A stretch of 64,000 nt of DNA from an uncultured bacterium (lineage in GTDB: Bacteria; Krumholzibacteriota; Krumholzibacteriia; LZORAL124-64-63), in NCBI GenBank assembly GCA_963732385.1, contig CAVSZB010000007.1:1248001-1312000 (forward strand), in the 5' to 3' direction. This document shows, piece by piece, positions 229 through 62,234 of the stretch; the stretch's first letter is position 1, and each line of letters begins with the position of its first letter. The notes beneath the pieces are model-generated. The model had not been told where the DNA came from, did not search any database, and was given only the letters and a program-made list of their open reading frames with translations. The position numbers and the translations under genes were made by a program.

Positions 229-3015
229 ATGAAGAGCCCCGCACGTATCAGCATCCTCGTGGCCCTGGGCTTCGCCCTTGGCGTGGCAACGACCGCGCGC
301 GCCCAGTCCAACGCCGACTGTCTCGGTTGCCACGACGACCCCACGCTGTACTCCGTCCGCGACGGCCTCCGCGTCTCCCGCCACGTCGATGTCAAGGCGT
401 TCGACCGCTCGGCGCACGCCGGTGTGGAGTGCGTCTCGTGCCATGCGGATCTCTCCGGCAGCGACTTCCCGCACAAGGAGAAGGCCGATCCGGTCGATTG
501 CGGCGGCTGCCACGACGAGGTCGCCGCCCTGTACGTGCAGAGCCTGCACGGAAGCAAGGTCGCCGCGGGGGACAAACTGGCGCCGCGCTGCCGGGACTGC
601 CACGGCTCGCACGATATCCTGCCCCGCACCGACCCCGACTCGCGCGTGACCAAATTCAACATTCCCTTCATGTGCGGCTCCTGCCACAAGGAGGGGACGC
701 CGGTCTCGCGTTTCTACAATATCCCGCAGGACAGCATCCTGACGCACTACTCGGAAAGCATCCACGGCGAGGGGCTGTTCCAGAAGGGCCTCACGATCAC
801 CGCAGTCTGCTCGGATTGTCACACCGCCCATTTCGTCCTCCCGCACACCGACAACCGCTCCAGCATCGCGCGCGCGAACGTGGCGACCACCTGCCAGCAT
901 TGCCACGGCCGCATCGAGCAGGTGCACGTGAAAGTCATCCGGGGCGAATTGTGGGAAAAGGCGCCCAAACAGGTGCCGGTCTGCGTGGATTGCCACCAGC
1001 CGCACAAGGCGCGCCGCATCTTCTACGCCGAGGGGATCTCCGACCGCGATTGCCTCGCCTGCCATTCCCGGTCGGACCTCACCACCAGGCACGACGGCAA
1101 GACGGTTTCCCTGACGGTGTCGGGCGACGAACTGCACGACTCGATCCACCGCAACGTGCGGTGCGCGCAGTGCCACGCCGGCGCCACGCCCGGGCACAAG
1201 CGCCCGTGCGACACCGTGACCACGAAGGTGGACTGCTCGACGTGCCACGCCGAGCCGGTCAGGCAGTACCAGGCCGGCATCCATGGCCAGCTGGCCGCGC
1301 GGGGCGATGTCGATGCTCCCCACTGCACGACCTGCCACGGCACCCACGGCACGAAGGCGCACCTTGATCCGGCCTCTCCCGTCTTCACGCGGAACGTGCC
1401 CTCGCTATGCGCGCGCTGCCACGGCGAAGGCAATCCCGCTCAGGTGCGGTACAAGGGCGATCAGAAGGACATCGTCGCCCACTACCTGCAGAGCGTTCAC
1501 GGCAAGGGACTGACCGAGAGCGGCCTGGTCGTGACCGCCATGTGTGCCGACTGCCACACGGCGCATACCGAGTTGCCCGCGGCCGACCCGGCATCGACCG
1601 TCAATCCGGCGAACATCCCGCACACCTGCGCGAAGTGCCACACCGGCATCAGCGAGATTTTCGCGCGCAGCATCCACGCCAAAGGCCAGCCGAAAGACGG
1701 CAAGCCGCTGCCGGTCTGCAGCGACTGCCATTCCTCGCACGCGATCGCCCGCACGGACGCCGAAGGCTTCAAACTCGAGATCATCGGCCAGTGCGGGAAA
1801 TGCCATGAAGCGGTCACCGAATCGTACTTCCAGACCTATCACGGCAAGGTCGTCAAGCTGGGCTCCGCCAAGACGGCGAAGTGCAACGACTGCCATGGTT
1901 CACACGACATCCTGCCGCCCATCGACCCGGCTTCGCATCTGTCGAGGCAGAATGTGGTGGCCACCTGCGCACAGTGCCATCCGGGATCGCACCGCCGGTT
2001 CGCGGGCTACCTGACCCACGCCACGCATCATGATCGCGACAAATACCCCGCGCTCTACTGGACCTTCCGCTTCATGAGCACGCTGCTCGTGGGGACTTTC
2101 CTGTTCTTCGGAGTGCACACGCTGCTCTGGCTGCCGCGCTCGTTCCAGGCGATGAAACACGCCAAGGCGCTGCGCCAGCGCTCGGAGGGGCAGAAACAGA
2201 TCCGCCGCTTCCCGCGCCTCTCGCGCCAGTTGCACGTGCTCGTGGTGACGAGTTTCCTCGGCCTCGCTCTCACCGGCATGACCCTGAAGTTCTCGTACCT
2301 CGGCTGGGCGCAATGGCTGGCCCGGGTCCTGGGCGGGTTCGAGGGAGCCGGCACGATCCACCGCATCTGCGCGGTGATAACCTTCTTCTACTTCACCCGC
2401 CACATCATCGATCTGGTCGAACGCAAGCGCGTCAGCCGGGTCTCCTGGCGTGAATTCCTGACCGGCCCGGACTCCATGACACCGGGCGCTACCGATCTGA
2501 AGGAATTCGGACAGACGATGCGGTGGTTCGTCGGTCTCGGACCGCGGCCGCGGTACGGCCGCTGGACCTACTGGGAAAAGTTCGACTACTTCGCGGTGTT
2601 CTGGGGCGTGGCGATGATCGGCACCACCGGGTTGATGCTCTGGTTCCCGGAGTTTTTCACCCGCCTGCTGCCGGGCCGGTTCATCAATGTGGCGACGATC
2701 ATCCATTCGGACGAGGCGCTCCTCGCCACGGGCTTCATTTTCACCATCCATTTCTTCAACACCCATTTCCGTCCGGACAAATTCCCGATGGACACGGTCA
2801 TTTTCAGCGGACGCATCCCGCTGGAAGAGTTGAAGGAGGATCGGCCGCGGGAATACGCAAGGCTGGTCGAATCGGGCGAGCTGGAGCAGCAGCTCGTCGA
2901 TCCGCTCCCCTCCTATGTCCTGCGGGGGCTGAAGATCTTCGGCTGGTTTGCGCTTTCGCTCGGGATCGCGCTGATCGTCCTCATCATCTGGGCGGAAGTC
3001 TTCAGGTACCGCTGA
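229..3015 (+). CDS. Multiheme cytochrome c (19 CxxCH) fused to a C-terminal cytochrome b-type membrane domain (CbcL-like)
   Basis: Signal peptide MKSPARISILVALGFALG; 19 CxxCH motifs counted; C-terminal hydrophobic helices with His ligands and the RWTYWEKFDYFAVFWG / HSDEALLA motifs of FdnI/cyt b-like domains. Confidence 0.9.
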   Translation: MKSPARISILVALGFALGVATTARAQSNADCLGCHDDPTLYSVRDGLRVSRHVDVKAFDRSAHAGVECVSCHADLSGSDFPHKEKADPVDCGGCHDEVAALYVQSLHGSKVAAGDKLAPRCRDCHGSHDILPRTDPDSRVTKFNIPFMCGSCHKEGTPVSRFYNIPQDSILTHYSESIHGEGLFQKGLTITAVCSDCHTAHFVLPHTDNRSSIARANVATTCQHCHGRIEQVHVKVIRGELWEKAPKQVPVCVDCHQPHKARRIFYAEGISDRDCLACHSRSDLTTRHDGKTVSLTVSGDELHDSIHRNVRCAQCHAGATPGHKRPCDTVTTKVDCSTCHAEPVRQYQAGIHGQLAARGDVDAPHCTTCHGTHGTKAHLDPASPVFTRNVPSLCARCHGEGNPAQVRYKGDQKDIVAHYLQSVHGKGLTESGLVVTAMCADCHTAHTELPAADPASTVNPANIPHTCAKCHTGISEIFARSIHAKGQPKDGKPLPVCSDCHSSHAIARTDAEGFKLEIIGQCGKCHEAVTESYFQTYHGKVVKLGSAKTAKCNDCHGSHDILPPIDPASHLSRQNVVATCAQCHPGSHRRFAGYLTHATHHDRDKYPALYWTFRFMSTLLVGTFLFFGVHTLLWLPRSFQAMKHAKALRQRSEGQKQIRRFPRLSRQLHVLVVTSFLGLALTGMTLKFSYLGWAQWLARVLGGFEGAGTIHRICAVITFFYFTRHIIDLVERKRVSRVSWREFLTGPDSMTPGATDLKEFGQTMRWFVGLGPRPRYGRWTYWEKFDYFAVFWGVAMIGTTGLMLWFPEFFTRLLPGRFINVATIIHSDEALLATGFIFTIHFFNTHFRPDKFPMDTVIFSGRIPLEELKEDRPREYARLVESGELEQQLVDPLPSYVLRGLKIFGWFALSLGIALIVLIIWAEVFRYR

Positions 3016-3277
3016 GCCTCGCCTGATTGTCGCCAGGAAATCCTGCCCCCGGCTGCGGACAGTCGTGATACCAACTCCTACTTTCGCAATCTGTTATCGA
3101 CGTGGTATTTTCACGAAATTGTCCCGCCAGCTTGACTCCCGGGATTCGATTCCCCAAGGTTGCGATAGGATATTGATTCAGGACTTTCGCTGCCTTGGTT
3201 AACGTCGGAACCGACGCCCCCAGGCCAGGCGTCGGACCGCCGCGAGACAGCGAGCTACGTATGGCGAGGTGACAAGC

Positions 3278-4195
3278 ATGAGCATGGACCGTCGCGACTT
3301 CCTGAAGTTCGCAGCCGCAGGCTCGACCGCCCTCGCGATCGGCGGCAGTCTGACCGCCGAGGCCGACGCCTCCTCAACCGCCCTGGACTCGCCCCGGAAC
3401 GACGCCTTCGGCGTTCTGGTGGACACCACGTTCTGCGTGGGATGCCGCAAGTGCGAGTGGGGCTGCAACCAGGCCAACGAGTTGCCGAAAATCGACAGGG
3501 AGGTCTTCGAGGACAAGTCGATCCTGACGAGTCACCGTCGCCCGGACGTCGCAGCCTTTACGGTGGTCAACCAGGTGGCCGCGCCGCCCGAAACGGAGCA
3601 GCCGGTCTTCGTGAAGATCCAGTGCATGCACTGCAACCGCCCTGCCTGCGTTTCGGCCTGCATCGTCGGCGCGCTGCGCAAGCAGCCGGAGGGTCCGGTC
3701 ACCTACGACGCCGCGAAATGCATCGGGTGCCGCTACTGCATGGTGGCGTGTCCGTTCCAGATCCCCGGCTACGAATACACGCGCGCACTCCAGCCCCGCG
3801 TGATGAAGTGCGGCTTCTGCGCCGAACGCACCATGAAGGAGGGGCGCAAGCCCGGCTGCGTGGAGAATTGCCCCAACGAGGCGCTGACGTTCGGCCGCCG
3901 CGGGGAGCTGCGCGAACTGGCCCACCAGAAGATCTCCGCCTCCCCCTCCCGCTATCTCAATCACGTCTACGGGGAGTACGAAGCGGGCGGCACGAGTTGG
4001 ATGTACCTGGCCGGCATCGACTTCGTCCGCGCCGACCTGCCGACGCTGGGCAGCCACGCCATGCCCTCTCTGACGGAGAAGATCCAGCACGGCGTTTTCA
4101 AGAACTTCGTGCCGCCGCTGGCGCTCTACGGACTGCTGGGCCTCGTGATGGCGAGTCAGCGCAAGGACGACGGGGAGGGCGGAAACGATGAGTGA
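3278..4195 (+). CDS. Tat-exported 4Fe-4S protein, HybA/HmcB/NrfC family
   Basis: Twin-arginine motif DRRDFLK; four Cys clusters CVGCRKCEWGC, CMHCxxPACVSAC, CIGCRYCMVAC, CGFC..CVENC; C-terminal hydrophobic helix. Confidence 0.9.
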   Translation: MSMDRRDFLKFAAAGSTALAIGGSLTAEADASSTALDSPRNDAFGVLVDTTFCVGCRKCEWGCNQANELPKIDREVFEDKSILTSHRRPDVAAFTVVNQVAAPPETEQPVFVKIQCMHCNRPACVSACIVGALRKQPEGPVTYDAAKCIGCRYCMVACPFQIPGYEYTRALQPRVMKCGFCAERTMKEGRKPGCVENCPNEALTFGRRGELRELAHQKISASPSRYLNHVYGEYEAGGTSWMYLAGIDFVRADLPTLGSHAMPSLTEKIQHGVFKNFVPPLALYGLLGLVMASQRKDDGEGGNDE

Positions 4196-5447
4196 CCATG
4201 CATCCCCCGTGCGGGGCTCCTACCTGACGCGCGGCAGCACGGCCGTCCTGGCCGTGGCCGCCGTGGGCATCCTGATCTACCTGTCGCGAATGTTTCTTGG
4301 TCTCGAGAAAGTGACCAATCTGGACAACCAGTGGCCCTGGGGCATCTGGATCGCGGTCGATGTCGCCACCGGCGTCGCGCTGGCCGCGGGCGGCTTCACC
4401 TCCGCGGCTCTGGTCTACATCTTCGGCCACCAGCGGTACCATCCGCTGATCCGCCCGGCGCTGCTGACGGCCATGCTCGGCTACACGTTCGTCGTCATCG
4501 GGCTGCTGGCCGATCTCGGGCGCTGGTACAACGTCTGGCACCCGATGCTGCCCTCGATGTGGCAGGGCAACTCGGTGCTGTTCGAGGTCGGCATCTGCGT
4601 GATGATCTACCTGTGCGTGCTCTACATCGAGTTCGTGCCGATCGTCGCGGAACGCTTCAAGGGACGCGTTGCGCTGCGCGGAGCGCCCCAGCGCCTGAAC
4701 CGGACGATCGACAAGCTCCTGCACGCGGCCGATGCCACGCTTTCGCGCTTCATGTTCATCTTCATCATCGCCGGCGTCGTCCTGTCGTGCCTGCACCAGT
4801 CCTCGCTGGGCACCCTGATGTTGATCGCGCCGACAAAAATGAGCCCGCTCTGGTACACGCCGGTCATGCCGGCCCTCTTCCTTTTGTCGGCCATCGCGGT
4901 CGGCTTCCCGATGATCATCTTCGAATCTCTCCTGGCGTCGCGCAGTTTTCGGCTCCCTCCGGAGATGAACCTGCTCGCCGGTCTGGGGCGGATCGTCACG
5001 TTCACGCTGGGGATCTACGCCGTCGCAAAGATCGTCGACCTGACGGTGCGCGAAGCGTGGCCCTGGGCCCTCGCCGGCGGCACCCAGGCCGTGATGTTCT
5101 GGATCGAGATGCTGGGGGGCGTGCTGCTGCCACTGATCCTCTTCGCCCTGCCGCGCGTGCGGCGTGATCCCCGCGGCCTCTTCGCCGCCGCCACCCTGAC
5201 CGTGCTCGGCGTCGCCCTCAACCGGATCAACGTCTTTTTGGTGGCGTATCGCCCGCCGTTCGCCGGGCCGACCTACTTCCCGTCCGTCTTTGAGATTCTG
5301 CTCACGGCGGGGCTGATCGCCACCCTGGTGCTGGTCTACCGGGCGATCGTGATGATCTTCCCTGTCATCGCCGCGCCTCACGGCGCCGGCGCATCGATTC
5401 ACGTCGGGGAATCGGGCCGGCCGCACAGCCAGGCCCAGGCAAGGTGA
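4188..5447 (+). CDS. NrfD/PsrC-family integral membrane protein, HybB/HmcC-like
   Basis: NLDNQWPWGIWIAVDV, DLGRWYN and LHQSSLGTL motifs; many TM helices; overlaps the upstream Fe-S gene. Confidence 0.9.
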   Translation: MSDHASPVRGSYLTRGSTAVLAVAAVGILIYLSRMFLGLEKVTNLDNQWPWGIWIAVDVATGVALAAGGFTSAALVYIFGHQRYHPLIRPALLTAMLGYTFVVIGLLADLGRWYNVWHPMLPSMWQGNSVLFEVGICVMIYLCVLYIEFVPIVAERFKGRVALRGAPQRLNRTIDKLLHAADATLSRFMFIFIIAGVVLSCLHQSSLGTLMLIAPTKMSPLWYTPVMPALFLLSAIAVGFPMIIFESLLASRSFRLPPEMNLLAGLGRIVTFTLGIYAVAKIVDLTVREAWPWALAGGTQAVMFWIEMLGGVLLPLILFALPRVRRDPRGLFAAATLTVLGVALNRINVFLVAYRPPFAGPTYFPSVFEILLTAGLIATLVLVYRAIVMIFPVIAAPHGAGASIHVGESGRPHSQAQAR

Positions 5448-6625
5448 TCAAGATGAATATCCGTCCGATCACGCGGGCCGTCGCCCTGGCTTCCGCGCTG
5501 TTGAGCCTCTCCTTTGCGCCCGGCGCGCAGGCCCAGACCAAGCGCACCGAAGCGGACGAGCGCGCCCACATGCAGATGATGAACCTCGACTGCCTCGAGT
5601 GCCACACCTGCAAGGACCCGACGAGCGCCACGGCCTGCCTCAAGGCCTGCCCGCGCCTGACGGTCGCCCAGAACACCGGCCGTCATGTGGTGGCGGAAGC
5701 CCCCGAGGGAATGGTGCTCGACTCGCTGGCCGACCAGTACCAGGGGGTCCGGTTCGGCCACAAGCTGCATGCCGGCATGTCGGAGATGAACGCCGGCTGC
5801 TCGACCTGCCACCACTTCTGTCCGCCCGGCAAGATCCCGCCCTGCGGAAGTTGCCATAGCGTCGAGGCCAGCACCCAGAATCTGCGACAGCCCAGCCTCA
5901 AAGGCGCCTACCACCGCCAGTGCATGAACTGCCATCGGGAATGGAGCCACGAGACCGACTGCAACATCTGCCACCTGCCGTCCGGCAAATTCGCGCAGAC
6001 CGGGGACAGGACCGATCCGACCGACATCATGGGCAAGTCCCACCCGGTGATCGCCGCGCCGGAAAAGCGGAGCTATCACACGCCGTACGAGAAGGGCCCG
6101 GTGGTGACGTTCTACCACCAGGAACACATCGACCTGTTCGGCCTGCGCTGCGTGGACTGCCATCAGAAGGAGAACTGCAGCTACTGCCACGACATGCAGA
6201 AGCCGGCCACCCTGAAGAAGAGCATGGAGGAAGTGCACGCGATCTGCTCGAGTTGCCACCAGACGGCCAAGTGCTCGAAATGCCACGATACGGTCGAGCG
6301 GCCCGCCTTCTCGCACGCCGCCACCGGCTGGTCGATCGGCCGCTTCCACTCCCGGCTGGAGTGCCGCGGCTGCCACCCGACCGGCAAGCGGGTCTCGAAG
6401 GTGAATCGCGAGTGCACCTCGTGCCACGGCGGCTGGAACCAGGAGAACTTCCGCCACGCCGTCACCGGCCTGCAGCTCGACGACACGCACGGCGCGGCCG
6501 ACTGCGCGGACTGCCACGCCAACCGCCGCTACGCCGAGAAGCCGACCTGCTCCGGCTGCCACGACGACAATCGCGACTTCAAATCGGTCCCGCCCGGCAA
6601 GTACGTGAGGGTCGGGGGGCGGTAG
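5444..6625 (+). CDS. Periplasmic multiheme cytochrome c (13 CxxCH), cytochrome c3/HmcA-like
   Basis: Signal peptide; 13 CxxCH; c3-type VxFxHxxH and LKGAYHRQCxxCH motifs. Confidence 0.88.
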   Translation: MIKMNIRPITRAVALASALLSLSFAPGAQAQTKRTEADERAHMQMMNLDCLECHTCKDPTSATACLKACPRLTVAQNTGRHVVAEAPEGMVLDSLADQYQGVRFGHKLHAGMSEMNAGCSTCHHFCPPGKIPPCGSCHSVEASTQNLRQPSLKGAYHRQCMNCHREWSHETDCNICHLPSGKFAQTGDRTDPTDIMGKSHPVIAAPEKRSYHTPYEKGPVVTFYHQEHIDLFGLRCVDCHQKENCSYCHDMQKPATLKKSMEEVHAICSSCHQTAKCSKCHDTVERPAFSHAATGWSIGRFHSRLECRGCHPTGKRVSKVNRECTSCHGGWNQENFRHAVTGLQLDDTHGAADCADCHANRRYAEKPTCSGCHDDNRDFKSVPPGKYVRVGGR

Positions 6626-6672
6626 GCGCCCCGCCCCGCCGCCAGGGCGGCCGCAACGCTGAGCGAAGCAGT

Positions 6673-6702
6673 GACGACGGCCCGGGAAACCGGGCCGTCG
6701 TC
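6673..6702. terminator. Hairpin between convergent genes
   Basis: Perfect 13-bp stem GACGACGGCCCGG / CCGGGCCGTCGTC with GAAA loop. Confidence 0.65.
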
Positions 6703-6719
6703 GTTCCCGTCGTTCCGGC

Positions 6720-7421
6720 TCACCGATCCGCGCCCGGATCCTTCACGACGTTCGCCGGTTCCAGTCGGCCCAGCTGCCGCAGATTGCGGATCACTCGACG
6801 CATCAGCATGCCGAGCATGATCGCCGCGAGACAGACGCCGGCGAGGTCGAATACCGTCGCGCCCACGCCCAGCACCTCGAACGGGATCGGCCCGATTGTC
6901 ACGGCGGCCGTGTTGAGCGCGATGAGCAACAGCCGCGTCTCGGTCGGCCCGACCACTCCGTATCCGAAGCGGAAGTCGTTGAAGACCTGGCTCTCCAGAT
7001 AGACGTTGATGGAGAGGATCAGATAGGCCACGACCACGGCCAGGCCGACGGCCAGCAGCATGTAGGGCGACAACCCGAGCCCCAGTCCGATCGCCAGCGT
7101 GGAGAAGGCGTCCACGAGGTGATCGAGATAGAACCCGTAGCGCGGCCGCTGGATCCGCCGCACCCGCGCGATCGTCCCGTCGAGACTGTCACCGAACCAG
7201 TTGATGACGAAGCCCAGGCTGGCGACCCACAACCATGCCGGCGACTGGTTCGACATCAGGTAGGCGAACGTGACGAGACACGACCCCCCGATCCCGATCA
7301 GCGTCAGATGATCGGGCAGCAGACCCCGCGGCAGCCGCGGCGCCAGCCAGGCGAGCAGCCGCTTCTCCCCCTCGCTGAAGACGAAGGTGGCGCGGCGGCG
7401 GGGCTCGGCGGCAGAAGTCAT
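6720..7421 (-). CDS. CDP-alcohol phosphatidyltransferase family protein (YnjF-like)
   Basis: Signature DSLDGTIAR...YGFYLDHLVD; hydrophobic. Confidence 0.88.
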   Translation of the reverse strand: MTSAAEPRRRATFVFSEGEKRLLAWLAPRLPRGLLPDHLTLIGIGGSCLVTFAYLMSNQSPAWLWVASLGFVINWFGDSLDGTIARVRRIQRPRYGFYLDHLVDAFSTLAIGLGLGLSPYMLLAVGLAVVVAYLILSINVYLESQVFNDFRFGYGVVGPTETRLLLIALNTAAVTIGPIPFEVLGVGATVFDLAGVCLAAIMLGMLMRRVIRNLRQLGRLEPANVVKDPGADR

Positions 7422-7597
7422 GATCCAGCCTCCGGGGTGAGTGGCGCGGCGGCGGGCGGGACGACCCGCCGCGGACACTGCATCCTAACCGCAAGGAGCC
7501 GGGAATGTCCCCCGTTCCGATGGCCGGCATAAGCCAGGGGCCGCCCAGCGGTGGGACGGCCCCGGGTCTTCCGCCTGCCGGCGCGGCGCGTGTCCGG

Positions 7598-9499
7598 TCA
7601 GTGTTTTTCGTCCTCGATCTTCCGGCCTGTCAGTTCCTCCCACTCCAGCGGGTGCTCGCTCTTGAGCTGGCGCTCCGGCATCATCCCGTTGATCCAGCTC
7701 GGATTCATCGGGTAGACCTTCGGGTTGAACACGGTCGCGTACATGTGCCAGATCAGGATCGCCAGGAAGGCCAGCCACGCCTCGTAGTAATGGATCACCA
7801 GCAGGACATCGAGCAGCCCCTTGGGGAAGAACTTCACGGCGTAGTTGTCGAACCACAGGAACAGTCCGGTAATCCCCATCACCACGGTGCCCCAGACGAG
7901 GGCCCAGTATTCGGCCTTCTCCACATAGGAGAACCGCCCGAAATGCGGATGTTGGGCGCTTTTGCCCAGGTTGTACTTCATCATCTGGAAGAACTGGATC
8001 ACGTCCAGCTTGCCCGGGAGCATGTCGCGCACGAAGCAGCGGCCCCGCTTCGTGACCAGGAAGATCAGGTGCCACAGCCCGCCCAGCAACAGCAGCACGC
8101 CCGCGGACCGGTGGATGATGCCGCGCGTCGTGTAACCGCCCTCGCGGCCGAAAACGAGCGTGCTCCACCAGGCGTCGTAGTAGCGAAGCGCGAAGCCGGT
8201 CACCACCAGTACCGTGAAGGCGAGCGCCAGCACGGTGTGCTGCACCACTTCGTCCGCGTCCATGCGCCGGACCTGCTTCTCCCGCATCACCGCGATGATC
8301 TGGCGGAACAGGTCGATCAGCCAGTGTACGATCATGCCGCCGATCACAACCACTATCAGGATGACATAGATGATCTTCACGAGGTGCGGCCAGCCCCGAT
8401 CATGTCCGGTGGCCGTGGAGTGGATCGAGGTGGCGGCGAGCTTGGCCGTGATGCCGGGGTGGCACTGCCCGCAGGTGTGCTGCAGGTTGGCCGGCGCGAT
8501 CGAGGAGGTCGCGTCGGATGACGGCAGGATGCGGTGCGCGCCGTGGCAGGAACCGCAGTTGGCCACCAATTTGTCGCCCGCCCGGCTCTTGAGACCATGG
8601 TACGAATCGCGGAACGACTGCAGACGTCCGCTCGGCAGGTCGTACTTCTCGTTCAGGAACGCCGACTCGTGGCACGGCGTGCAGGTGGCCTCGGCGACGC
8701 GATATGGGCTGACCGGGGAGCGTGGGTCGCTCACCGGCAGGATGCCGTGCTCGCCGTGGCAGTGGGTGCAGGTCGGCGCGTCGACCTCGCCGCGCGCGAC
8801 CAGCTGGCCGTGGATCCCCTCCATGTAGTCCTGGGCGATGGCGGTGTGGCACTTGCCGCAGGTCTTCGGGATGTTGAAGAAGTTGATGGTCGAGCTGATG
8901 TCCCCGGGGGGCAGGATGTGGTGCGCGTTGCCGCCAGTGGAGTGGCAATCATTGCAGGAGGCTGCCGTGTGGATGCCCCCCGACATGGCGCGCCCGTGCA
9001 CGCTCTTCGAGTAGACGCGGATCGGGTGCTTGAACTTGATATTGCGGCCGCTGATGAGCGTCGAATCCTCATGGCACTTGCCGCAGGTCTCCGGCAGATT
9101 CACCGGGCTCACCGCCGAGTGGTTGTCGCTGCCGGCGAGGATCTGGTGCGAGCCGTGGCAATCGCCGCAGTTCGGCACCGAGGTCGACTGCCCGACCATC
9201 GCGCGCCCGTGCTGCCTGTAGGTATCGACCTCTTCCGCGTGGCAGCCGGCGCAGTTCGCCGGAGACAGTTTCTCCGGGTGCGGCAACTCGGTGATGTCGG
9301 AGTGACAGTCCAGACACGAAAGCCCTTCGTGGAGGCTCCCTTTCAGGGTCTCGGCGCTGACCTCCGCCGGCTGTCCGCCCGAGCCGGTGTGGCAGGTGGC
9401 GCAGTCGGTTTCGGTGATCTGCGCCCGCAACGGCGCAACCCCGCCAAAGCTAATGAATAGAAGGGCCATCAGCACCGTCGAGGCCGTCGTCCACTTCAT
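7598..9499 (-). CDS. Multiheme cytochrome c (11 CxxCH) fused to a cytochrome b domain (CbcL-like)
   Basis: RBS GAGGTGG; signal peptide; 11 CxxCH; C-terminal TM domain with FSYVEKAEYWALVWG and HYYEAWLA. Confidence 0.9.
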   Translation of the reverse strand: MKWTTASTVLMALLFISFGGVAPLRAQITETDCATCHTGSGGQPAEVSAETLKGSLHEGLSCLDCHSDITELPHPEKLSPANCAGCHAEEVDTYRQHGRAMVGQSTSVPNCGDCHGSHQILAGSDNHSAVSPVNLPETCGKCHEDSTLISGRNIKFKHPIRVYSKSVHGRAMSGGIHTAASCNDCHSTGGNAHHILPPGDISSTINFFNIPKTCGKCHTAIAQDYMEGIHGQLVARGEVDAPTCTHCHGEHGILPVSDPRSPVSPYRVAEATCTPCHESAFLNEKYDLPSGRLQSFRDSYHGLKSRAGDKLVANCGSCHGAHRILPSSDATSSIAPANLQHTCGQCHPGITAKLAATSIHSTATGHDRGWPHLVKIIYVILIVVVIGGMIVHWLIDLFRQIIAVMREKQVRRMDADEVVQHTVLALAFTVLVVTGFALRYYDAWWSTLVFGREGGYTTRGIIHRSAGVLLLLGGLWHLIFLVTKRGRCFVRDMLPGKLDVIQFFQMMKYNLGKSAQHPHFGRFSYVEKAEYWALVWGTVVMGITGLFLWFDNYAVKFFPKGLLDVLLVIHYYEAWLAFLAILIWHMYATVFNPKVYPMNPSWINGMMPERQLKSEHPLEWEELTGRKIEDEKH

Positions 9500-13283: not shown

Positions 13284-13700
13284 ATGCGTGCATTGCGCTT
13301 CCTCAACATCATCGGCGTTCTCGCCGCCCTCTTCATGGCCGCGGGCACGGCCGTCGCCGGCAAGACCGCGGCGCAGGCCCAACCGCAGAGCACCTGCCCC
13401 GTGACCGGCAAACCGATCGACAAGGGGGTCTCGACGACCTACGGCGGACAGAAGGTCTACTTCTGCTGTCCGAAGTGCATCGCGACCTTCGACAAGGATC
13501 CCGAGACTTATCTGGCGAAGCTCGGCAAGCAGGGCCAGATCGTCGAGTCGCAGCAGAAGTTCTGCCCGGTGTCGGGTGAGCCCATCGATGCGAAGGTCTC
13601 GGTCGACTACAAGGGACGCCACGTCTTCTTCTGCTGCGCCATGTGCATCAAGGATTTCCAGGCTGACCCGGCCAAGTACCTCCCGAGAATGGCGGCCTGA
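13284..13700 (+). CDS. Exported tandem YHS/TRASH metal-binding protein
   Basis: Signal peptide; two CPVxG...Y.G....FCCxxC...F..DP..YL repeats. Confidence 0.88.
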   Translation: MRALRFLNIIGVLAALFMAAGTAVAGKTAAQAQPQSTCPVTGKPIDKGVSTTYGGQKVYFCCPKCIATFDKDPETYLAKLGKQGQIVESQQKFCPVSGEPIDAKVSVDYKGRHVFFCCAMCIKDFQADPAKYLPRMAA

Positions 13701-15007
13701 TGAAACGACGCATCCGCATCCTGACCGGCGCGGTAATGGCCTGTGCGGCGCTGAGCGCCGCGCCCTCGAGGGGGCAGCAGTCCGCGGCCGTCGCCGACAC
13801 CGTCCCACCGGGGGATGTGGAGGCTTTCGTTGCTGACGTGCTGGCGCACGCGCCCTCGCTGGCCGCCCTTCAGGCACGCAGCGCCGCGGCCGCCCAGGGG
13901 ATCCGCGCGGCCGGCGCGCTGCCCGACCCCCGGCTCGAGTTCATGCTGCAGGACGTCGGCTTCCCCTCGCTCACCCTGGGTCGCGAGGCCATGTCGATGG
14001 CCGGTTTCGAAGTGACACAGGGGCTGCTCTGGCCCGGCAAACGTCGGGCGCGCTCGGCCGTCGCCACCGCCGAGGCCGGCGTGGCCGTCACCGAAGTCAC
14101 CGCGTTCAGGCGACGACTCGCCGCGGAGACGAGGATGCTGGGGGCGGCGCTCTATGCCCTGGACCGCGAGCGTGACCTCCTGAATTCCTCGCGCGAACTG
14201 CTCGAGATGCTGGCCGCCACGGTGACGGCGCGCTACGCCACGGGCGAGGCAGATCAGGAAGCTGTGCTGAAGCAGCAGTTGGCCGTGACCCGGCTCGACG
14301 AGCGGCTGGCGGACCTCGAGGCGAGCCGGGCCGGGCTGGCCGCGGAGATCAACCGGCTGTGCGGGCGATCCGGCGATGCGCCGGTGGGAGTGATCGCGTC
14401 GCTGCCGGATGTTACGCCACCGGCGCCGACACCCGCGGCGACGGCGGTGACCGGTGCGCCGGAGGTCGTGGTGCGCCGCGCCGGGCTGCAGGCGGCCCAG
14501 GCGCGTCTGACCCTGGCGCGGGCCGAGAAGCACCCGAACGCGGTGGCGGCCGCGGGCTACGGCTATCGCGACGGCTTCGATCCGGTCGTGACGCTGCGCT
14601 TCGGGCTGGAATTGCCGCTCTGGAGCGGCCGCAAGCAGGAGCCCCAGGCGCGGGCCGCCGCGTATGAGCTCGCAGCGGCGAAACACGAATTGGCCGCCGC
14701 CGAAGCCGCGGCCGACGCCGAGGCGACCCGGCTGGCGGCCGAGTGGCGGCGGGACGAAGCCCAGGTCCTGCTCTATCGGGAGTCGATCCTGCCCCGCACG
14801 AGTGCGGCATTCGACGCGGCGCGGGCCAACTACCTCGTCGGACGCGCGGACTTCGCCACCGTGGCCGAGGACTTCCGGATGTGGCTCGAAGCCCGCGTCG
14901 AGCTCGCCCGTCGCCAAGCCGATCGTTTCTCGGTTTGGGCCCGGATCGCAGCGCTCGTCGGCGAACCGACGCCGGACACGACCGGCGCCAGGAAGGAGCA
15001 ATCGTGA
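13700..15007 (+). CDS. TolC-family outer membrane efflux protein (CusC-like)
   Basis: ALPDPRL, Met-rich REAMSM, ELPLW, ANYLVGRADF; position in the RND operon. Confidence 0.85.
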   Translation: MKRRIRILTGAVMACAALSAAPSRGQQSAAVADTVPPGDVEAFVADVLAHAPSLAALQARSAAAAQGIRAAGALPDPRLEFMLQDVGFPSLTLGREAMSMAGFEVTQGLLWPGKRRARSAVATAEAGVAVTEVTAFRRRLAAETRMLGAALYALDRERDLLNSSRELLEMLAATVTARYATGEADQEAVLKQQLAVTRLDERLADLEASRAGLAAEINRLCGRSGDAPVGVIASLPDVTPPAPTPAATAVTGAPEVVVRRAGLQAAQARLTLARAEKHPNAVAAAGYGYRDGFDPVVTLRFGLELPLWSGRKQEPQARAAAYELAAAKHELAAAEAAADAEATRLAAEWRRDEAQVLLYRESILPRTSAAFDAARANYLVGRADFATVAEDFRMWLEARVELARRQADRFSVWARIAALVGEPTPDTTGARKEQS

Positions 15008-16329
15008 ATCCCCGCATCCGTATGGGGCGGCTGAACCTGTCGCCATTGCTCGTGGCCGTCGGCGCGATCCTGCTCGTGGGAATTCTGGCGGGGGGCGGCT
15101 GCAGTCCACAGAAGGCGGACGCCACCCCCTACCACTGCCCCATGCATCCGACCTATGTAGCGGATCGACCGGGCGATTGCCCGATCTGCGGCATGCGGCT
15201 GGTCCCGGTAAAGCCCGCTCAGCCGGCCGAGGTTGAACAGTCGGCTCCCGACACGGAAACCGGTGTTGCGGACCTGGCGACGGTCACCATGAACGCGGAA
15301 GAGATGCGCCTGACCGGAGTGATGACGGCCGTCGCGGAGCGGGGTCCGTTCGTGCGCACGGTGCGCGCGGTCGGAACCGTGAAGGCGGACGAAACCCGCG
15401 TCCGGCGCGTCCAGACGCGGGTCGGAGGATATGTTGAAAGACTGCAGGCGAACTTCACCGGCCAGCTGATCCGCCGGGGAGATCCCGTTCTGGGCATCTA
15501 CTCGCCGGAACTGCTGTCGTCCCAGGAGGAGTTCCTGCGGGCTTGCGAGACGGCCAAGCGCTTCGCGACCTCGAGCCTTCCCGAGACTCGCCGCGGCGGC
15601 GAGGACCTCCTGCGGGCGTCGCGCCAGCGGCTCGAGCTGTTCGACGTGCCGGAGTCGTTCATCGCCAGCCTCGAGCAGACCGGCCGGGCGGAGCGGGTCG
15701 TCACTCTGACGGCGCCGATCTCGGGCTACATCACCGCCAAGGACGTATTGATCGGGCAGCGGGTCGAGCCGGGGATGGAACTCTTCACGGTGACGGACCT
15801 GAGCGCTGTCTGGGTCGAAGCCGCGTTCTACGAGTCCGAGGCGCCGGCGATTACCGTTGGGGCGACGGCCACGCTCACACTCCCCTATGACCCGTCCCTG
15901 AAACTGCAGGGGCGCGTGGCCTACATCTATCCCTACCTGAACTTGGAAACGCGAACCCTGCCGGTGCGTTTCGATGTGCCCAACCCCGGGCTCGCCCTCA
16001 AACCGGGCATGTATGCGAACGTCGATCTCAGCATCGACCAGGGCGAACAGGTCACCGTGCCCGCCGACGCCGTGATGGATACGGGGACCCGGCAGATCGT
16101 GTTCGTCGCGGGCGCCAACGGCTCCTTCGCGCCCCGCCTGGTGACCGTGGGCGCCCGCGCGAACGGTCTTGCGTCCATCCTGACGGGTCTCGCGCCGGGC
16201 GAGCAGGTCGCCGTGAAAGCGAACTTCCTGCTCGACTCCGAGTCCCGCCTGCGGGCGGCCATCGCGGGCGCGACCTCCCCGAACGCGCCCTCCGCCCCCG
16301 GCAACCAGCACGCGGGAGACGGGCAGTGA
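15004..16329 (+). CDS. RND efflux periplasmic adaptor, CusB-like, with heavy-metal-binding domain
   Basis: YHCPMHP...PGDCPICGMRLVP, YSPELLSSQEE, LKPGMYANV, ANFLLDSESRL; GTG start overlaps the TolC stop. Confidence 0.9.
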   Translation: MNPRIRMGRLNLSPLLVAVGAILLVGILAGGGCSPQKADATPYHCPMHPTYVADRPGDCPICGMRLVPVKPAQPAEVEQSAPDTETGVADLATVTMNAEEMRLTGVMTAVAERGPFVRTVRAVGTVKADETRVRRVQTRVGGYVERLQANFTGQLIRRGDPVLGIYSPELLSSQEEFLRACETAKRFATSSLPETRRGGEDLLRASRQRLELFDVPESFIASLEQTGRAERVVTLTAPISGYITAKDVLIGQRVEPGMELFTVTDLSAVWVEAAFYESEAPAITVGATATLTLPYDPSLKLQGRVAYIYPYLNLETRTLPVRFDVPNPGLALKPGMYANVDLSIDQGEQVTVPADAVMDTGTRQIVFVAGANGSFAPRLVTVGARANGLASILTGLAPGEQVAVKANFLLDSESRLRAAIAGATSPNAPSAPGNQHAGDGQ

Positions 16330-19300
16330 TCCGCAGAATCATCGAATTTTCGGCGCACAACCGGGTGCTCGTGCTCATTGGCGTGGCCGCGCTGTGCGCC
16401 GTGGCGGTGCACACGCTCAAGACGATCCGGCTCGACGCCCTGCCCGACCTCTCGGACACGCAGGTCATCGTTTACTCCAGGTGGGACCGCTCGCCCGACA
16501 TCATCGAGGACCAGGTCACCTACCCGGTCGTCAGCGCGTTGCTGGGCGCTCCCCGGGTCAAGGCGATCCGCGGTTACTCGGACTTCGGTTTCTCGTACGT
16601 CTACGTCATCTTCCAGGACGGCACCGACATGTACTGGGCGCGCTCGCGCGTGCTCGAGTACCTGTCGAAGATCCAGTCGCGGCTTCCCGATGGGGTGCAG
16701 ACCGAACTGGGGCCCGACGCGACCGGCGTGGGCTGGGTGTTCCAATACGCCCTGGTGGACCGCTCCGGCGCGCATTCCCCGGACGAACTGCGTTCATATC
16801 AGGACTGGACGCTCCGGTACGCGATCCAGTCGGTTCCCGGCGTCGCCGAGGTCGCCTCGATCGGCGGCTTCGTGAAACAGTACCAGATCACCGTGGACCC
16901 GAACCGCCTGGCCACGTATGGCCTGCCGATCATGGCGGTCGCCGCCGCCATCCGTGCGTCCAACGACGAAGTGGGCGGGCGACTGATCGAATGGAGCGGG
17001 ACCGAGTACATGGTGCGGGCCCGCGGCTACGCCCGCAGCCTGTCCGACTTCGAGCAGGTCGTCCTCAAGGTGGGACCCGGCGGCGTGCCGGTCCTGCTGC
17101 GCGACGTCGCGCGGGTCGAATTCGGCCCGGAAATCCGCCGCGGCGTGTCCGACCTTGACGGGCTGGGCGATGCGGTCGGCGGCATCGTCGTCATGCGTCA
17201 CGGCGAGAACGCCCTCAACGTGATCAGGGCCGTCAAGACGCGGCTGGCGGAGCTGCGTCCGTCGCTGCCGGCGGGCGTGGAGATCGTCACCACCTACGAC
17301 CGCGCAACGCTCATCGAACGGGCTCTCGACACCCTCAGGCACGAGCTCACCGTGGAGATGATCATCGTCGCGCTGGTGATCCTCATCTTCCTGTGGCACA
17401 TCCCGTCGGCGGTCGTGCCGATCGTGACCATCCCGATGTCGGTGCTGCTGGCGTTCATCCCGATGAAAATGTTCGGCGTGACCGTCAACATCATGTCGCT
17501 GGCCGGCATCGCGATCTCGATCGGCGTGCTCGTGGACGGCGCCATCGTCGAGGTGGAGAACGCCTACAACAAGCTGCACCTGTGGGAGGCGGGGGGGCGC
17601 AAGGGCGACTATCACGCGGTGCGGCTCGAAGCGCTGAAGGAGGTCGGCCCGTCGGTCTTCTTCTCGCTGCTCGTGATCGGCGTCGCCTTCCTGCCCGTCT
17701 TCGCGCTGGTCGATCAGGAAGGGCGGCTCTTCAAGCCGCTCGCGTATTCCAAGAACCTGGCGATGTTGCTGGCCGCCCTGCTGGCGATCACGCTCGATCC
17801 CGCCATGCGCATGATGTTCACGCGGATGGACCCGTTCCTGTTCCGTCCCCGCTGGCTGGCGCGCCTGGCTACGCACGCGCTCGTGGGCACTTACCACTCG
17901 GAGGAGCGCCACCCGATCAGCCGCGTGATCTTCCGCGTGTACGACCCGGCGTGCCGGTTCGTGCTGCGCCACCCCTGGCGCGTGATCGGCGCGGCCCTGT
18001 TGATCGTGGCGGTCAGCCTGCCCGCGTTCTTCCACCTCGGCTCCGAGTTCATGCCGCCCCTGAACGAGGGCACGCTCCTCTACATGCCGACCACGCTGCC
18101 GGGCATCTCGGTCGCCGAGGCGCAGCGGCTGCTCGAGACCCAGGACCGCGTGCTCAAGGGCTTCCCCGAGGTCGAGCGGGTCTTCGGCAAGGCTGGCCGC
18201 GCCGACACCTCGACCGACCCGGCCCCCTTCTCGATGATGGAAACCACGGTCGTGCTCAGGCCGCACGACGAGTGGCGTCCGAAACAGCGCTGGTACTCCG
18301 CCTGGGCGCCGCGCTGGCTGCGCGGCGTGCTCAACCCTGTCTGGCCGGACCGGATCTCGTGGGACGAGCTCGTCGACGAGATGGACCGGGCGCTGCGCAT
18401 CCCGGGCGTGACGAACGCCTGGACCATGCCGATCAAGGCGCGCATCGACATGCTGACCACCGGCGTGCGCACGCCGGTCGGCATCAAGGTGTTCGGCTCC
18501 GACCTGAAGGAGATCGAGCGGATCGGGTCGAGCCTCGAGGGGATCATACGCAAGGTGCCGGGCACCCGCAGCGTGTACGCCGAGCGCGTGGCGGGCGGCT
18601 ACTTCGTGGATATCGACCCGCGCCGCGACCAGCTCGCCCGCTACGGCCTGACGATCGCCGACGTGCAGGCGGTCATCATGAGCGCGATCGGCGGCGAGAA
18701 CATCACCACCACGGTGGAAGGGCGCGCGCGCTACCCCGTGAACCTGCGCTACCCCCGCGAACTGCGCGGCGACGTCGATCAGCTGCGGCGGGTTCTGGTG
18801 GCGGCGCCGGGCGGGGCGCAGGTGCCGTTGGGGCAGGTGGCCGAGATCCGGCTCGTTCAGGGCCCGTCGATGCTGCGCGACGAGAACGGCTTTCTGGCCG
18901 GCTACGTCTACGTGGACATCGCCGGCCGCGACGTCGGCGGCTATGTGGAAGAGGCGAAGCGGGCCGTCGCGTCGCAGCTGACGCTGCCGGCCGGCTACGT
19001 CCTGCAGTGGAGCGGACAGTACGAGAACATGATCCGCGTCCGCGAGCGGCTCAAGGTCGTCGTGCCGATCACCCTGGTCCTGATCTTCGTGCTGCTGCTG
19101 GCGAACACGCGGTCGGCCTTCAAGGCCGCGGTCGTCATGCTGGCGGTGCCGTTCTCGGCGGTCGGAGCCATCTGGCTGTTCCATCTGCTGCATTACAACG
19201 TGTCGATCGCCGCCTGGGTGGGGATGATCGCCCTGCTCGGCCTCGACGCGGAGACCGGCGTCTTCATGCTGCTGTTCCTCGACCTCTCCTACGCGGAGGC

Positions 19301-19577
19301 GAAGCGGCAGGGCCGCCTGCGCTCGGTCGCGGAGCTGGACGAGGCCATCCTGCACGGCGCCGTCAAGCGCGTGCGGCCGAAACTGATGACGGTCGCCGCC
19401 GCGTTCATGGGCCTGCTGCCGATCATGTGGTCGACGTCGGCCGGCGCCGACGTGATGAAGCGCATCGCCGCGCCGATGATCGGCGGCCTGGCCACCTCGT
19501 TCCTGCTGGAGCTGCTCGTCTACCCGGCCGTGTACAAGCTGTGGAAGCGGCGCACCGAGTTGCGGGGAATCGCGTGA
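16326..19577 (+). CDS. cusA: CusA/SilA-family Cu/Ag heavy-metal efflux RND transporter
   Basis: LDALPDLSDTQVI, LGPDATGVGWVFQY, EFMPPLNEG, DPAPFSMMET, RIDMLTTG (Met triad), KRVRPKLMT. Confidence 0.93.
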   Translation: MIRRIIEFSAHNRVLVLIGVAALCAVAVHTLKTIRLDALPDLSDTQVIVYSRWDRSPDIIEDQVTYPVVSALLGAPRVKAIRGYSDFGFSYVYVIFQDGTDMYWARSRVLEYLSKIQSRLPDGVQTELGPDATGVGWVFQYALVDRSGAHSPDELRSYQDWTLRYAIQSVPGVAEVASIGGFVKQYQITVDPNRLATYGLPIMAVAAAIRASNDEVGGRLIEWSGTEYMVRARGYARSLSDFEQVVLKVGPGGVPVLLRDVARVEFGPEIRRGVSDLDGLGDAVGGIVVMRHGENALNVIRAVKTRLAELRPSLPAGVEIVTTYDRATLIERALDTLRHELTVEMIIVALVILIFLWHIPSAVVPIVTIPMSVLLAFIPMKMFGVTVNIMSLAGIAISIGVLVDGAIVEVENAYNKLHLWEAGGRKGDYHAVRLEALKEVGPSVFFSLLVIGVAFLPVFALVDQEGRLFKPLAYSKNLAMLLAALLAITLDPAMRMMFTRMDPFLFRPRWLARLATHALVGTYHSEERHPISRVIFRVYDPACRFVLRHPWRVIGAALLIVAVSLPAFFHLGSEFMPPLNEGTLLYMPTTLPGISVAEAQRLLETQDRVLKGFPEVERVFGKAGRADTSTDPAPFSMMETTVVLRPHDEWRPKQRWYSAWAPRWLRGVLNPVWPDRISWDELVDEMDRALRIPGVTNAWTMPIKARIDMLTTGVRTPVGIKVFGSDLKEIERIGSSLEGIIRKVPGTRSVYAERVAGGYFVDIDPRRDQLARYGLTIADVQAVIMSAIGGENITTTVEGRARYPVNLRYPRELRGDVDQLRRVLVAAPGGAQVPLGQVAEIRLVQGPSMLRDENGFLAGYVYVDIAGRDVGGYVEEAKRAVASQLTLPAGYVLQWSGQYENMIRVRERLKVVVPITLVLIFVLLLANTRSAFKAAVVMLAVPFSAVGAIWLFHLLHYNVSIAAWVGMIALLGLDAETGVFMLLFLDLSYAEAKRQGRLRSVAELDEAILHGAVKRVRPKLMTVAAAFMGLLPIMWSTSAGADVMKRIAAPMIGGLATSFLLELLVYPAVYKLWKRRTELRGIA

Positions 19578-35454: not shown

Positions 35455-36018
35455 ATGCCGCTGCCGTTTTTTCCCACCCCCGGCCGCCGCCGACGCGCCC
35501 GGCTCGCCGCCCTCCCCGCGGAGGTACGCGCCGAACTGAACGCCGCGCCCCCGTCACCTTTGGCCGCCCCGCTGCTGGCCGGCGCCGCGGTCGGCGTGGC
35601 GCTGGCCTGCGGGCTCAGCCTGTTCGCCTGGACCTCCCTGCCCGACCATATCCCGTCCCACTTCGGCCCCGACGGCCGCGCCGACGCCTGGGACGGCCGG
35701 AGCACCCTGTTCATCTTCCCCGTCATGACCCTGTTCCTGTTCGGCATGATGACCCTGCTGACCCGCTCTCCCGCCACCTACAACTACCCCTTCGCCATCA
35801 CGCGCGACAACGCCCGCCGCCAGGCCACGCTCGCCATGGGCCTGATCGCCTGGCTCCGCTTCGCCACCATCTGGCTGATGACCTACCTGGAATACGGCGT
35901 CATCGCCGCCGCGCGCGACGAAAACGCCACCCTCGGCTACTGGTTCCTGCCGGTCGTGCTGCTGCTGATCGTCGGGCCGGTGGTCGGGTACCTTGTCGCG
36001 GCGTGGCGGGGGCGGTAG
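35455..36018 (+). CDS. DUF1648-domain membrane protein
   Basis: LPDHIPSHFGPDGRADAW motif, YNYPF, four TM helices. Confidence 0.8.
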   Translation: MPLPFFPTPGRRRRARLAALPAEVRAELNAAPPSPLAAPLLAGAAVGVALACGLSLFAWTSLPDHIPSHFGPDGRADAWDGRSTLFIFPVMTLFLFGMMTLLTRSPATYNYPFAITRDNARRQATLAMGLIAWLRFATIWLMTYLEYGVIAAARDENATLGYWFLPVVLLLIVGPVVGYLVAAWRGR

Positions 36019-36021
36019 CCT

Positions 36022-37428
<1,407 letters not shown>

Positions 37429-37446
37429 GCCCACCTCCGCCGCGCG

Positions 37447-42509: not shown

Positions 42510-42528
42510 GGCGCCCTCCCTGACCGGT

Positions 42529-42981
42529 TCAACCGGCCGCCGACGCCTGTCCTGCCAGGAATTCCGCCACCACCGCGGCGATTCCCGCCTCGTCGCAGTG
42601 CCGCACGGTCAGCAGCGGCGACGGATTGCCCACGATCATGGCCGACGGCAGCACTTCGGCCAGCGCCGCATCGCGCAGGCAGAGCGTCGGCAGGCCGAGA
42701 CGCAGCGCCTCACCGATTTCGAACCCGACCCCCAGCGACGGCACCGAGATCTCGGCGATCAGCGCGTCGCTCGCGCCCAGCCAGGCCAGGTCGCGCGCGA
42801 AAATGCGCCGCGCGCGATCGGGACCGTTGTCGGCGAAATCGGCAGCGGGGTCGATCACCGGCGTCGACAGCACAACCCACCCCGCCCGCGCAGCCGCCCG
42901 CGCGATCGCCGCCAGTCGCGGCGCGGCGCTCCGGCCCGCCGACATCGCGCCGGCCACGTACAACTGGCGGTCCGGCCTCAC
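42529..42981 (-). CDS. Nucleoside 2-deoxyribosyltransferase / DNPH1(Rcl)-like N-hydrolase
   Basis: YVAGAMSAGR, IFARDLAWL, IAEISVPSLGVGFEIG, SAMIVG. Confidence 0.82.
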   Translation of the reverse strand: MRPDRQLYVAGAMSAGRSAAPRLAAIARAAARAGWVVLSTPVIDPAADFADNGPDRARRIFARDLAWLGASDALIAEISVPSLGVGFEIGEALRLGLPTLCLRDAALAEVLPSAMIVGNPSPLLTVRHCDEAGIAAVVAEFLAGQASAAG

Positions 42982-43529: not shown

Positions 43530-43664
43530 AACCACCTCCCGCTGGACTTCCCACGCCCCGAACTGGCACCGCAGCCGGGCCGAACCGGCGTAAAGGTACC
43601 ACAAGCCCGCCCTCCGGACCACGCAGAGGTGGCGCGCGGGCCGACCGCGCCGCATGATGGAGTC

Positions 43665-62218: not shown

Positions 62219-62234
62219 CTTCACGGGAGCTCCG

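Follow-up and report, generated by a model that had tools for sequence, protein, structure and literature searches.

The 64,000-nucleotide stretch analysed here (the window) comes from an uncultured Krumholzibacteriota bacterium, in whose 3.8-Mb, 95.8% complete genome it occupies C7:1248001-1312000. Close to its start lies a cluster of six genes, A to F (Table 1), in which two cytochrome c/b fusions, A and F, flank a triplet encoding an iron-sulfur (FeS) protein, an NrfD-family membrane subunit and a 13-heme cytochrome (B, C and D). The original prediction, made from the letters alone, had described a single hub of five genes with 43 hemes, three quinone-interacting modules and no catalytic enzyme. 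Our open reading frames (ORFs) and motif scan reproduced its gene positions, the Tat 4Fe-4S and NrfD calls and the counts of 19 (A), 13 (D) and 11 (F) CxxCH motifs, 43 in all, where 2000 shuffles of each cytochrome yielded a maximum of 2-3 motifs per protein. Its redox genes were therefore listed correctly, but it had omitted E, which sits inside the cluster, and the minus strand of F. The guess that the organism belongs to the FCB lineage also fits the names carried by close homologues (Krumholzibacteria).

Table 1. Genes and features of the cluster, with positions in the window (aa, amino acids; Tat, twin-arginine translocation).
Feature	Position	Strand	Description
A	229..3015	+	928 aa; fusion of CbcL/MtrH/MtoC type; signal peptide, 19 c-heme motifs, FdnI-type di-heme cytochrome b
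B	3278..4195	+	Tat-exported 4x[4Fe-4S] subunit, HybA/HmcB type; predicted C-terminal membrane anchor; 16 Cys
C	4188..5447	+	10-helix NrfD-family quinone-binding subunit, HybB/HmcC/NhcC subgroup; PF03916 E 2e-25; start overlaps B
D	5444..6625	+	predicted periplasmic 13-heme cytochrome c; 13 CxxCH; start overlaps C
Hairpin	6673..6702		13 bp, G+C-rich, GAAA loop; between convergent D and E; read from sequence
E	6720..7421	-	CDP-alcohol phosphatidyltransferase, non-redox; PF01066 E 4e-11; lipid-synthesis gene
F	7598..9499	-	633 aa; second fusion of CbcL/MtrH/MtoC type; signal peptide, 11 c-heme motifs, FdnI-type di-heme cytochrome b

Since the ends of B, C and D overlap, the three genes would form one operon. 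E sits inside the cluster, and E and F lie on the minus strand, convergent with B-C-D, so that at least two transcripts are needed for the region; the 262-nt spacing between A and B suggests a third. The hairpin between D and E is a possible two-way terminator. It was missed by our terminator scan, which requires a T-run; the promoter and terminator scan gave no promoter, and the 5 terminators that it called compare with an expectation of 5.5. In two metatranscriptome runs the cluster was covered, but a control stretch (36000-46000) was covered equally; the matches were contigs of relatives at ~90-95% identity, and DNA carry-over is possible. The best-matching DNA data sets shared at most 25% of words with the window, and no habitat is assigned to the strain.

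Regions were fetched around 20 of the best NrfD matches among 40 relatives, several of these loci being short. B-C-D was found in 18 of the 20, of which one is truncated by a contig end and another has C fused to D; this fusion, in relative locus L049, argues that D belongs with C. In the other two, NrfD was fused to a c3 domain and an octaheme tetrathionate reductase (OTR) domain. CbcL-type genes stood beside the triplet in only 3 of the 20 loci; in other relatives the matches to A and F lay on contigs different from that of the triplet. Of 24 family genomes, 20 had a match to F at E <= 1e-30, and the position of E was conserved in two relatives only (G001 and G008). A single 43-heme supercomplex was thus rejected by strand, by the inserted gene E and by synteny, and of the five genes once taken for one hub only the triplet is conserved.

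The same unit was recovered from GTDB, where the best 80 of 547 candidate stretches, chosen for closeness to the D of the window, were kept. B and C stood beside D in 73 of these loci, in the order B-C-D in 68 and D-B-C in five, and five of the seven remaining loci were cut by a contig end close upstream. Most loci came from Zixibacteria and Ignavibacteria, others from Acidobacteriota, Marinimicrobia, Eisenbacteria, Gemmatimonadota, Lentisphaeria and, once, Ca. Deferrimicrobium; D was present in 45/67 family genomes and 53/150 phylum genomes sampled. The conserved unit is thus the FeS-NrfD-13-heme triplet, which would form a three-gene complex, and the 43-heme cluster is a lineage-specific local gathering. 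The D-B-C order was seen with a divergent NrfD at L129:7217-11247, where a GcvH-like gene precedes D, and L125, L127 and L128 have a similar order. In an NrfD tree from a quick search, with long outgroup branches, C fell closer to copies from Acidobacteria, Zixibacteria and Ignavibacteria than to most copies of its own family; its median identity to them was 61%, against 55% within the family, in loci that had been chosen for closeness to D. These are hints of a lateral replacement of C, which we do not claim.

The two fusions proved to be related to each other. A carries an 8-heme block duplicated in tandem, followed by 3 more hemes; over 240 aa the repeats share 41% identity, with a score of 475 where shuffled sequences reached at most 48, and this tandem copy accounts for the extra length of A over F. 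F exceeded the PF01292 cut-off and matched FdnI with E 6e-8. A remained below the PF01292 cut-off and gave only weak matches to solved structures (one of them, 28pb_A, possibly Geobacter CbcA), yet it aligns to F throughout, residues 270-879 at 30% identity. H421, H463, H570 and H585 of F align with H18, H57, H155 and H169 of FdnI, which we take to be its b-heme ligands, and His669, His711, His725, His826 and His841 of A are invariant in 40/40 homologous cytochrome b domains, collected from the loci fetched in this analysis; four of these five positions are the ones aligned with FdnI. For the AlphaFold2 (AF2) model of F (predicted local distance difference test, pLDDT, 80) the best Foldseek match, and the only one under E 0.001, was FdnI (1kqf_C; template-modelling score 0.73 on the target).

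In the accessible passages of Zhong & Shi (2018, PMC6295460), the CbcL/MtrH/MtoC homologues are defined by 3-23 hemes and 416-1034 aa, and are spread over 15 phyla. Both A, with 19 hemes and 928 aa, and F, with 11 hemes and 633 aa, lie within this range and therefore fit as ordinary family members by architecture. With CbcL/MtrH/MtoC (GSU0274 in Geobacter sulfurreducens) they share an N-terminal multiheme c domain fused to a HydC/FdnI-like di-heme cytochrome b, as well as frequent mtrAB-like neighbours. CbcL has nine hemes against 19 and 11 here, the comparison being one of architecture rather than with the CbcL sequence itself.

B matched the TAT_signal and Fer4_11 domains and is 36% identical to E. 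coli HybA; C has 10 hydrophobic segments, is 34% identical to E. coli HybB and was matched by no solved structure in the sequence comparison. The comparison of profiles proposed in the original prediction gave matches to HybA, HybB, HmcB and HmcC, but all scores stayed below the family cut-offs: 331 bits for HmcB (cut-off 420) and 259 for HybA (263) in the case of B, and 355 for HybB (450), 299 for HmcC (550) and 107 for QrcD (570) in the case of C. In B, the 16 Cys and Tyr153 are conserved in 87/87 family members; Tyr153, placed between two Cys ligands, would be equivalent to QrcC Y113. In C, mapped on E. coli HybB and not on NhcC or HmcC, D58, Y99, D109, S129, E133, Y141, E148, E155, H203, E246 and R346 are shared with HybB, each of them being retained by 84-92 of 92 family members; T63, S95 and S105 of HybB are not conserved. 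The retained positions are those that PMC8076601 lists for the quinone site and the proton path of HybB, NhcC and QrcD; among them, D70, Y110, S138 and Y150 of QrcD are described as essential in passages of PMC13059093. Family assignments, conserved residues and the fold of F agree that all three modules are of quinone-interacting kinds, as had been proposed.

HybA and HybB being among the best NCBIfam matches, B and C could in principle form the membrane arm of a hydrogenase, a formate dehydrogenase or another molybdenum (Mo) enzyme encoded elsewhere. The likeness to E. coli hydrogenase-2 and to QrcCD extends to 34-36% identity to HybA/HybB and to the kept quinone-site and proton-path residues; HybO/HybC and QrcB, however, are not in the cluster. 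As originally noted, the cluster holds no gene for a hydrogenase, a Mo-enzyme or a porin, and none was found in the scanned part of the window (a subset of its genes) or among the scanned ORFs of the 40 kb upstream (25 ORFs; 13/19 called genes), which consist of housekeeping genes and unknowns. A catalytic operon just outside the window, which would have spoken against the original prediction, was not found: in a genome-wide family search the nearest Mo-enzyme-family match lay ~80 kb upstream, and the sole NiFe large subunit of the genome ~170 kb downstream. The latter is of the cytoplasmic Mvh/Hdr type and stands in an Mvh/Hdr cluster, no group 1 NiFe hydrogenase was found in the 95.8%-complete genome, and the FeFe hydrogenases are of NADH-linked or sensory types with no Tat match. 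The assembly does contain one Tat-type Mo-enzyme (DMSO-reductase family) with an FeS subunit, at C2:123963-126833, but the median tetranucleotide distance of contig C2 (283 kb) is 0.29, against 0.08-0.10 for the other eight contigs. C2 is likely a contaminant or foreign, and its Mo-enzyme was rejected as a partner of B-C. A NiFe large subunit was found in 0/80 GTDB triplet loci, and we regard a membrane-arm role as the least probable of the readings weighed here.

D consists of heme 1 with three extra Cys (CxxCHxCxxPx5Cx3C), a c3 domain resembling that of HmcA and nine-heme cytochrome c (hemes 2-5), and eight further hemes. HmcA and nine-heme cytochrome c are its best solved relatives; against the family profiles D reached 58 bits for HmcA (cut-off 400) and 41 bits for the nine-heme cytochrome (cut-off 640), and the homology is confined to the C-terminal c3 domain of those proteins; D gave no NapC/NirT match. 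C56, C65, C69 and M112 are invariant in 81/81 sequences and M115 is kept in 80/81, and the heme 1 motif is present in 118 of the 120 homologues listed, out of 1280 found. Tandem second copies of D occur in L130, L131 and L134, where they follow D and lack heme 1 and the three-Cys motif, and also in L087 and L108. A complex prediction for B and D reached a score of 0.57, against 0.00 for the best control, with runs agreeing in at least 82% of contacts and a partner pLDDT of at least 70. The mark used was reached by 116/157 solved and 2/215 mismatched pairs, and scores up to 0.60 comprise 18 of the solved pairs and both mismatches; the model thus gives weak support to a complex of B with D.

The conserved heme 1 raises the question of whether D itself is catalytic. 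Catalytic hemes with His/Cys ligation are known from DsrJ, TsdA and SoxA, and a Cys-ligated or persulfide-carrying heme 1 would turn B-C-D into a molybdenum-free sulfur-compound oxidoreductase. In line with this, the motif is near-universal in the family, falls outside the part of D that aligns with HmcA and nine-heme cytochrome c, and is missing both from the 12-heme paralogues of D and from the OTR fusions, where a catalytic domain is already part of the protein. A disulfide may, however, simply join two of the Cys, and the third Cys or a conserved Met may be a structural axial ligand. Among neighbour genes that recur in four or more of 98 loci, visual inspection of the representatives showed no sulfur gene, and the AF2 model of D (pLDDT 55, predicted TM score 0.34) was too poor for ligand assignment, its Foldseek matches merely repeating the sequence result. 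We therefore consider a catalytic D very unlikely. The broader proposal that FeS-NrfD-13-heme is an unnamed respiratory complex of Krumholzibacteria, Zixibacteria, Ignavibacteria, Acidobacteriota, Marinimicrobia and other phyla, in which the three-Cys heme 1 replaces the Mo enzyme, acts on sulfur or another small substrate and is coupled to an electrogenic quinone site, seems to us quite unlikely.

The fusions in two of the relatives suggest another partner. At L055:9439-12648 and L056:7345-10614, proteins of 1070-1090 aa join NrfD, c3 and an octaheme domain that exceeds the TIGR04315 cut-off; they stand behind an FeS gene, with which they may constitute a complete quinol:substrate reductase in two genes. 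By analogy, the modules of the window, above all B-C-D, could feed soluble periplasmic octaheme reductases resembling OTR or hydroxylamine oxidoreductase (HAO), acting on sulfur or nitrogen compounds with no crossing of the outer membrane. The genome does encode a stand-alone OTR-family protein (C7:1183361; 316 bits, cut-off 375) and an HAO-like octaheme protein (C3:377926). On the other hand, an OTR-like gene was found in 0/80 GTDB triplet loci, the OTR fusions formed their own branch in the quick NrfD tree, and the CbcL orthologues travel with porin and decaheme genes. Supply of an octaheme reductase is thus unlikely to be the main role of the modules.

Among characterised systems, NhcABCD and HmcABC of Desulfovibrio are close in design: a multiheme c3-type cytochrome is combined with a Tat 4x[4Fe-4S] protein and with NrfD of 10 helices, and a catalytic subunit is lacking. 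They differ in having 9 or 16 hemes, against 13 in D, in the gene order, which is FeS-NrfD-cytochrome here, and in HmcD/E/F or NhcD, which are not in the cluster; moreover, B, C and D score below the HmcA/B/C cut-offs and D has the extra three-Cys heme 1 motif. The hosts of Hmc are sulfate reducers, whereas the window genome gave no match to DsrAB/NIR-SIR (PF01077). B-C-D would thus work like Nhc/HmcABC and not be a member of either family. Geobacter Cbc4 (CbcSTU) likewise joins a cytochrome, a 4x[4Fe-4S] protein and an integral membrane subunit with no enzyme, and is a proposed quinone-cytochrome oxidoreductase; its CbcS, however, is a membrane-anchored NapC/NirT-like tetraheme cytochrome according to passages of 10.1101/2025.04.14.648717 and PMC13591261, as opposed to the 13-heme c3-type D. 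Alternative complex III (ACIII) and Qrc contain a molybdopterin-enzyme-like B subunit that the cluster lacks, and the genome has a separate ACIII on C6.

The same architecture, with a multiheme cytochrome in place of the Mo catalytic subunit, has been reported from genomes of MBNT15 SHF-111, Melioribacter roseus and Methanoperedenaceae (accessible parts of PMC9386147 and PMC7327174). For the MBNT15-type clusters PMC9386147, citing Melioribacter, proposes electron flow from quinol to periplasmic cytochromes for metal reduction, and PMC7327174 makes the same proposal of extracellular electron transfer (EET) for the FeS, NrfD and multiheme genes of Methanoperedenaceae. Their cytochromes are likely identical with the 13-heme family, matched here by description and not by heme counts. 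The available passages of PMC3903129, PMC5317091 and bioRxiv 10.64898/2026.05.27.727921 do not describe the triplet. The architecture and the EET hypothesis are thus both already in print, as genome-based proposals. The part for which we found no description in the accessible literature (figures, supplements and subscription journals being outside it) appears to be the widespread 13-heme family with its three invariant extra Cys at heme 1.

The search for a porin-cytochrome conduit, suggested originally, gave none in the scanned upstream flank and one candidate elsewhere in the genome: a DmsE-family decaheme over its cut-off adjoins a 652-aa MtrB/PioB-like protein, named so by a language-model similarity of 0.98 whose recognition value lies below the reliable mark, with no Pfam or NCBIfam match. 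The flanking genes encode 8- and 9-heme proteins whose signals resemble those of lipoproteins. The genome further contains a six-heme NapC/NirT protein that is ImcH-like by architecture only, bd-like genes, a heme-copper oxidase subunit and, by family matches, the futalosine pathway to menaquinone. It has 29 ORFs with at least two CxxCH motifs, some of them duplicates: contig C9 overlaps both C4 (at its end) and C7 (at its start) with ~98% identity, so that genome heme counts are inflated, and in the C7 copy the multiheme genes are frameshifted. Iron-cycling genes of Krumholzibacteria have been noted before (passages of PMC7914226).

The local gathering is not a matter of chance. In relatives, genes of the two kinds come together. 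In G006, which shares the flanks of the cluster, A and F are accompanied by genes for an ImcH-like protein, for 9- and 8-heme proteins, for a decaheme and for a porin; the 8-heme, decaheme, porin and F orthologue genes are consecutive on one strand. In two Zixibacteria loci the genes for CbcL, a GSU2203-type decaheme and an MtrB-like protein of the GSU2204 family form a contiguous stretch with the triplet, on which they converge. Among 20 regions around A/F orthologues, hand-chosen and with non-independent kin, so that the counts are descriptive, a decaheme occurred in five and an ImcH-like gene, often adjoining A, in five. The MtrB-like proteins of the GSU2204 family (L098:7290-9509, L105:8463-10283, L151 and L154) end in FDG, and in L098 the next ORF on that strand has 131 aa; to judge from the family name, selenocysteine read-through may be involved. 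Two further candidate porin-cytochrome conduits (L003/L004) are C3:154030-158821, with 20 + 19 hemes and a 523-aa unknown, and C3:296577-300540, with 12 + 22 hemes and a 442-aa unknown.

Taken together, we favour, with a probability of about 0.55, three likely separate menaquinone:cytochrome c oxidoreductases that work outward, from the quinol pool through periplasmic multiheme cytochromes to an MtrAB-type conduit, in the respiration of Fe(III) or humics. In A and F, electrons would pass from quinol through two b hemes to the c-heme chain; in B-C-D, they would pass from quinol at C through the four FeS clusters of B to the 13-heme chain of D. The periplasmic cytochromes would then deliver them to the outer-membrane conduit, encoded elsewhere, and on to extracellular acceptors. 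By homology all three modules may exchange protons with the cytoplasm, since the quinone site of FdnI-type cytochrome b and the proton channel of HybB/QrcD-type NrfD both lie on the cytoplasmic side. Acting as quinol oxidases, the modules would thus be outlets of low yield, suited to poor acceptors of low potential, and better acceptors would be served by the ImcH-like protein and ACIII. For Geobacter CbcL, accessible passages of 10.1101/2022.08.31.506072 likewise conclude from the b-heme fold that the quinone site is on the cytoplasmic side and the energy yield of quinol oxidation low. The outward, low-potential role is preferred because there is no periplasmic donor enzyme, the conduit is flanked by lipoprotein-like multihemes and an ImcH-like gene is present.

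Several points weigh against it. There is no porin within the cluster, and only 3/80 GTDB loci had a decaheme and only 12/80 a CbcL-type cytochrome b, two of these being duplicates of the window's own kin. The NrfD-OTR fusions mean that the module can serve a periplasmic enzyme. According to PMC6295460, members of the CbcL/MtrH/MtoC family are carried by Fe(III) reducers as well as by Fe(II) oxidisers, with no feature that tells the two apart. HybB/HmcC-type subunits share the cytoplasm-side proton path of QrcD and, in the part of Duarte et al. (2018, PMC6303296) available, are argued to be preferably electrogenic quinone reductases, that is, inward; the same text states that the physiological direction of HmcC-type complexes is uncertain. 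Moreover, the roles of B-C-D and of A and F are predicted from the genes of uncultured members.

The same three modules might instead run inward. With Fe(II), reduced humics, partner cells or conductive particles as donors, electrons would come in through the porin conduit and be passed on to menaquinone; protons would be taken from the cytoplasm, building a proton motive force, and oxygen or an octaheme reductase would be the sink. C has retained the residues on which electrogenic quinone reduction by QrcD depends (passages of PMC13059093 and PMC6303296), F keeps the fold of FdnI, a quinone reductase, the heme-copper oxidase subunit, ACIII and bd-like genes are at hand, and within the CbcL family MtoC is found in Fe(II) oxidisers (PMC6295460, in part). 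The multihemes with lipoprotein-like signals beside the conduit nevertheless favour reduction on the reasoning given in passages of PMC3903129, and the ImcH-like gene, often beside A in relatives, points the same way, ImcH being reported only in Fe(III) reducers in the text of PMC6295460 that was available. Inward flow thus has a real but modest chance of being the correct reading.

A few neighbouring features stand apart from these questions. A 970-aa ORF just before the window (L001:17044-19956, minus) was rejected as a porin, having no Pfam match and not being barrel-like by inspection; it has a central membrane helix and flanks A or F orthologues in several relatives. An ordinary CusCBA-type heavy-metal efflux operon with a YHS-domain protein lies at 13284-19574 of the window. 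Membrane proteins with C-terminal heme c domains are encoded at 60839-63566 (+) of the window and at C8:461806-464468, the latter matching cytochrome bd subunit I (a bd-like heme-c fusion). Finally, C7:21185-24310 (L010:1188-4310, minus) encodes a cytochrome of 1041 aa in which 42 CxxCH motifs were counted; upstream of it lie a peptidyl-prolyl isomerase gene and three genes with no Pfam match, one of them for a 725-aa protein that ends in Phe and is possibly a barrel.

If outward flow is correct, this little-studied sediment lineage would have Geobacter-like parallel inner-membrane outlets (two CbcL types, ImcH-like, Nhc-like and ACIII) together with an MtrAB-type conduit, and the organism would live as a heterotroph that respires metals or humics. 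The triplet would then serve as a useful marker in many uncultured phyla, where annotation would label B and C as hydrogenase-2 subunits, and its three-gene version with no HmcDEF offers a simple system for testing the direction of HmcC-type complexes. The conserved extra Cys of D are a concrete target for spectroscopy, and the three-Cys heme 1 is the point most worth bench time.

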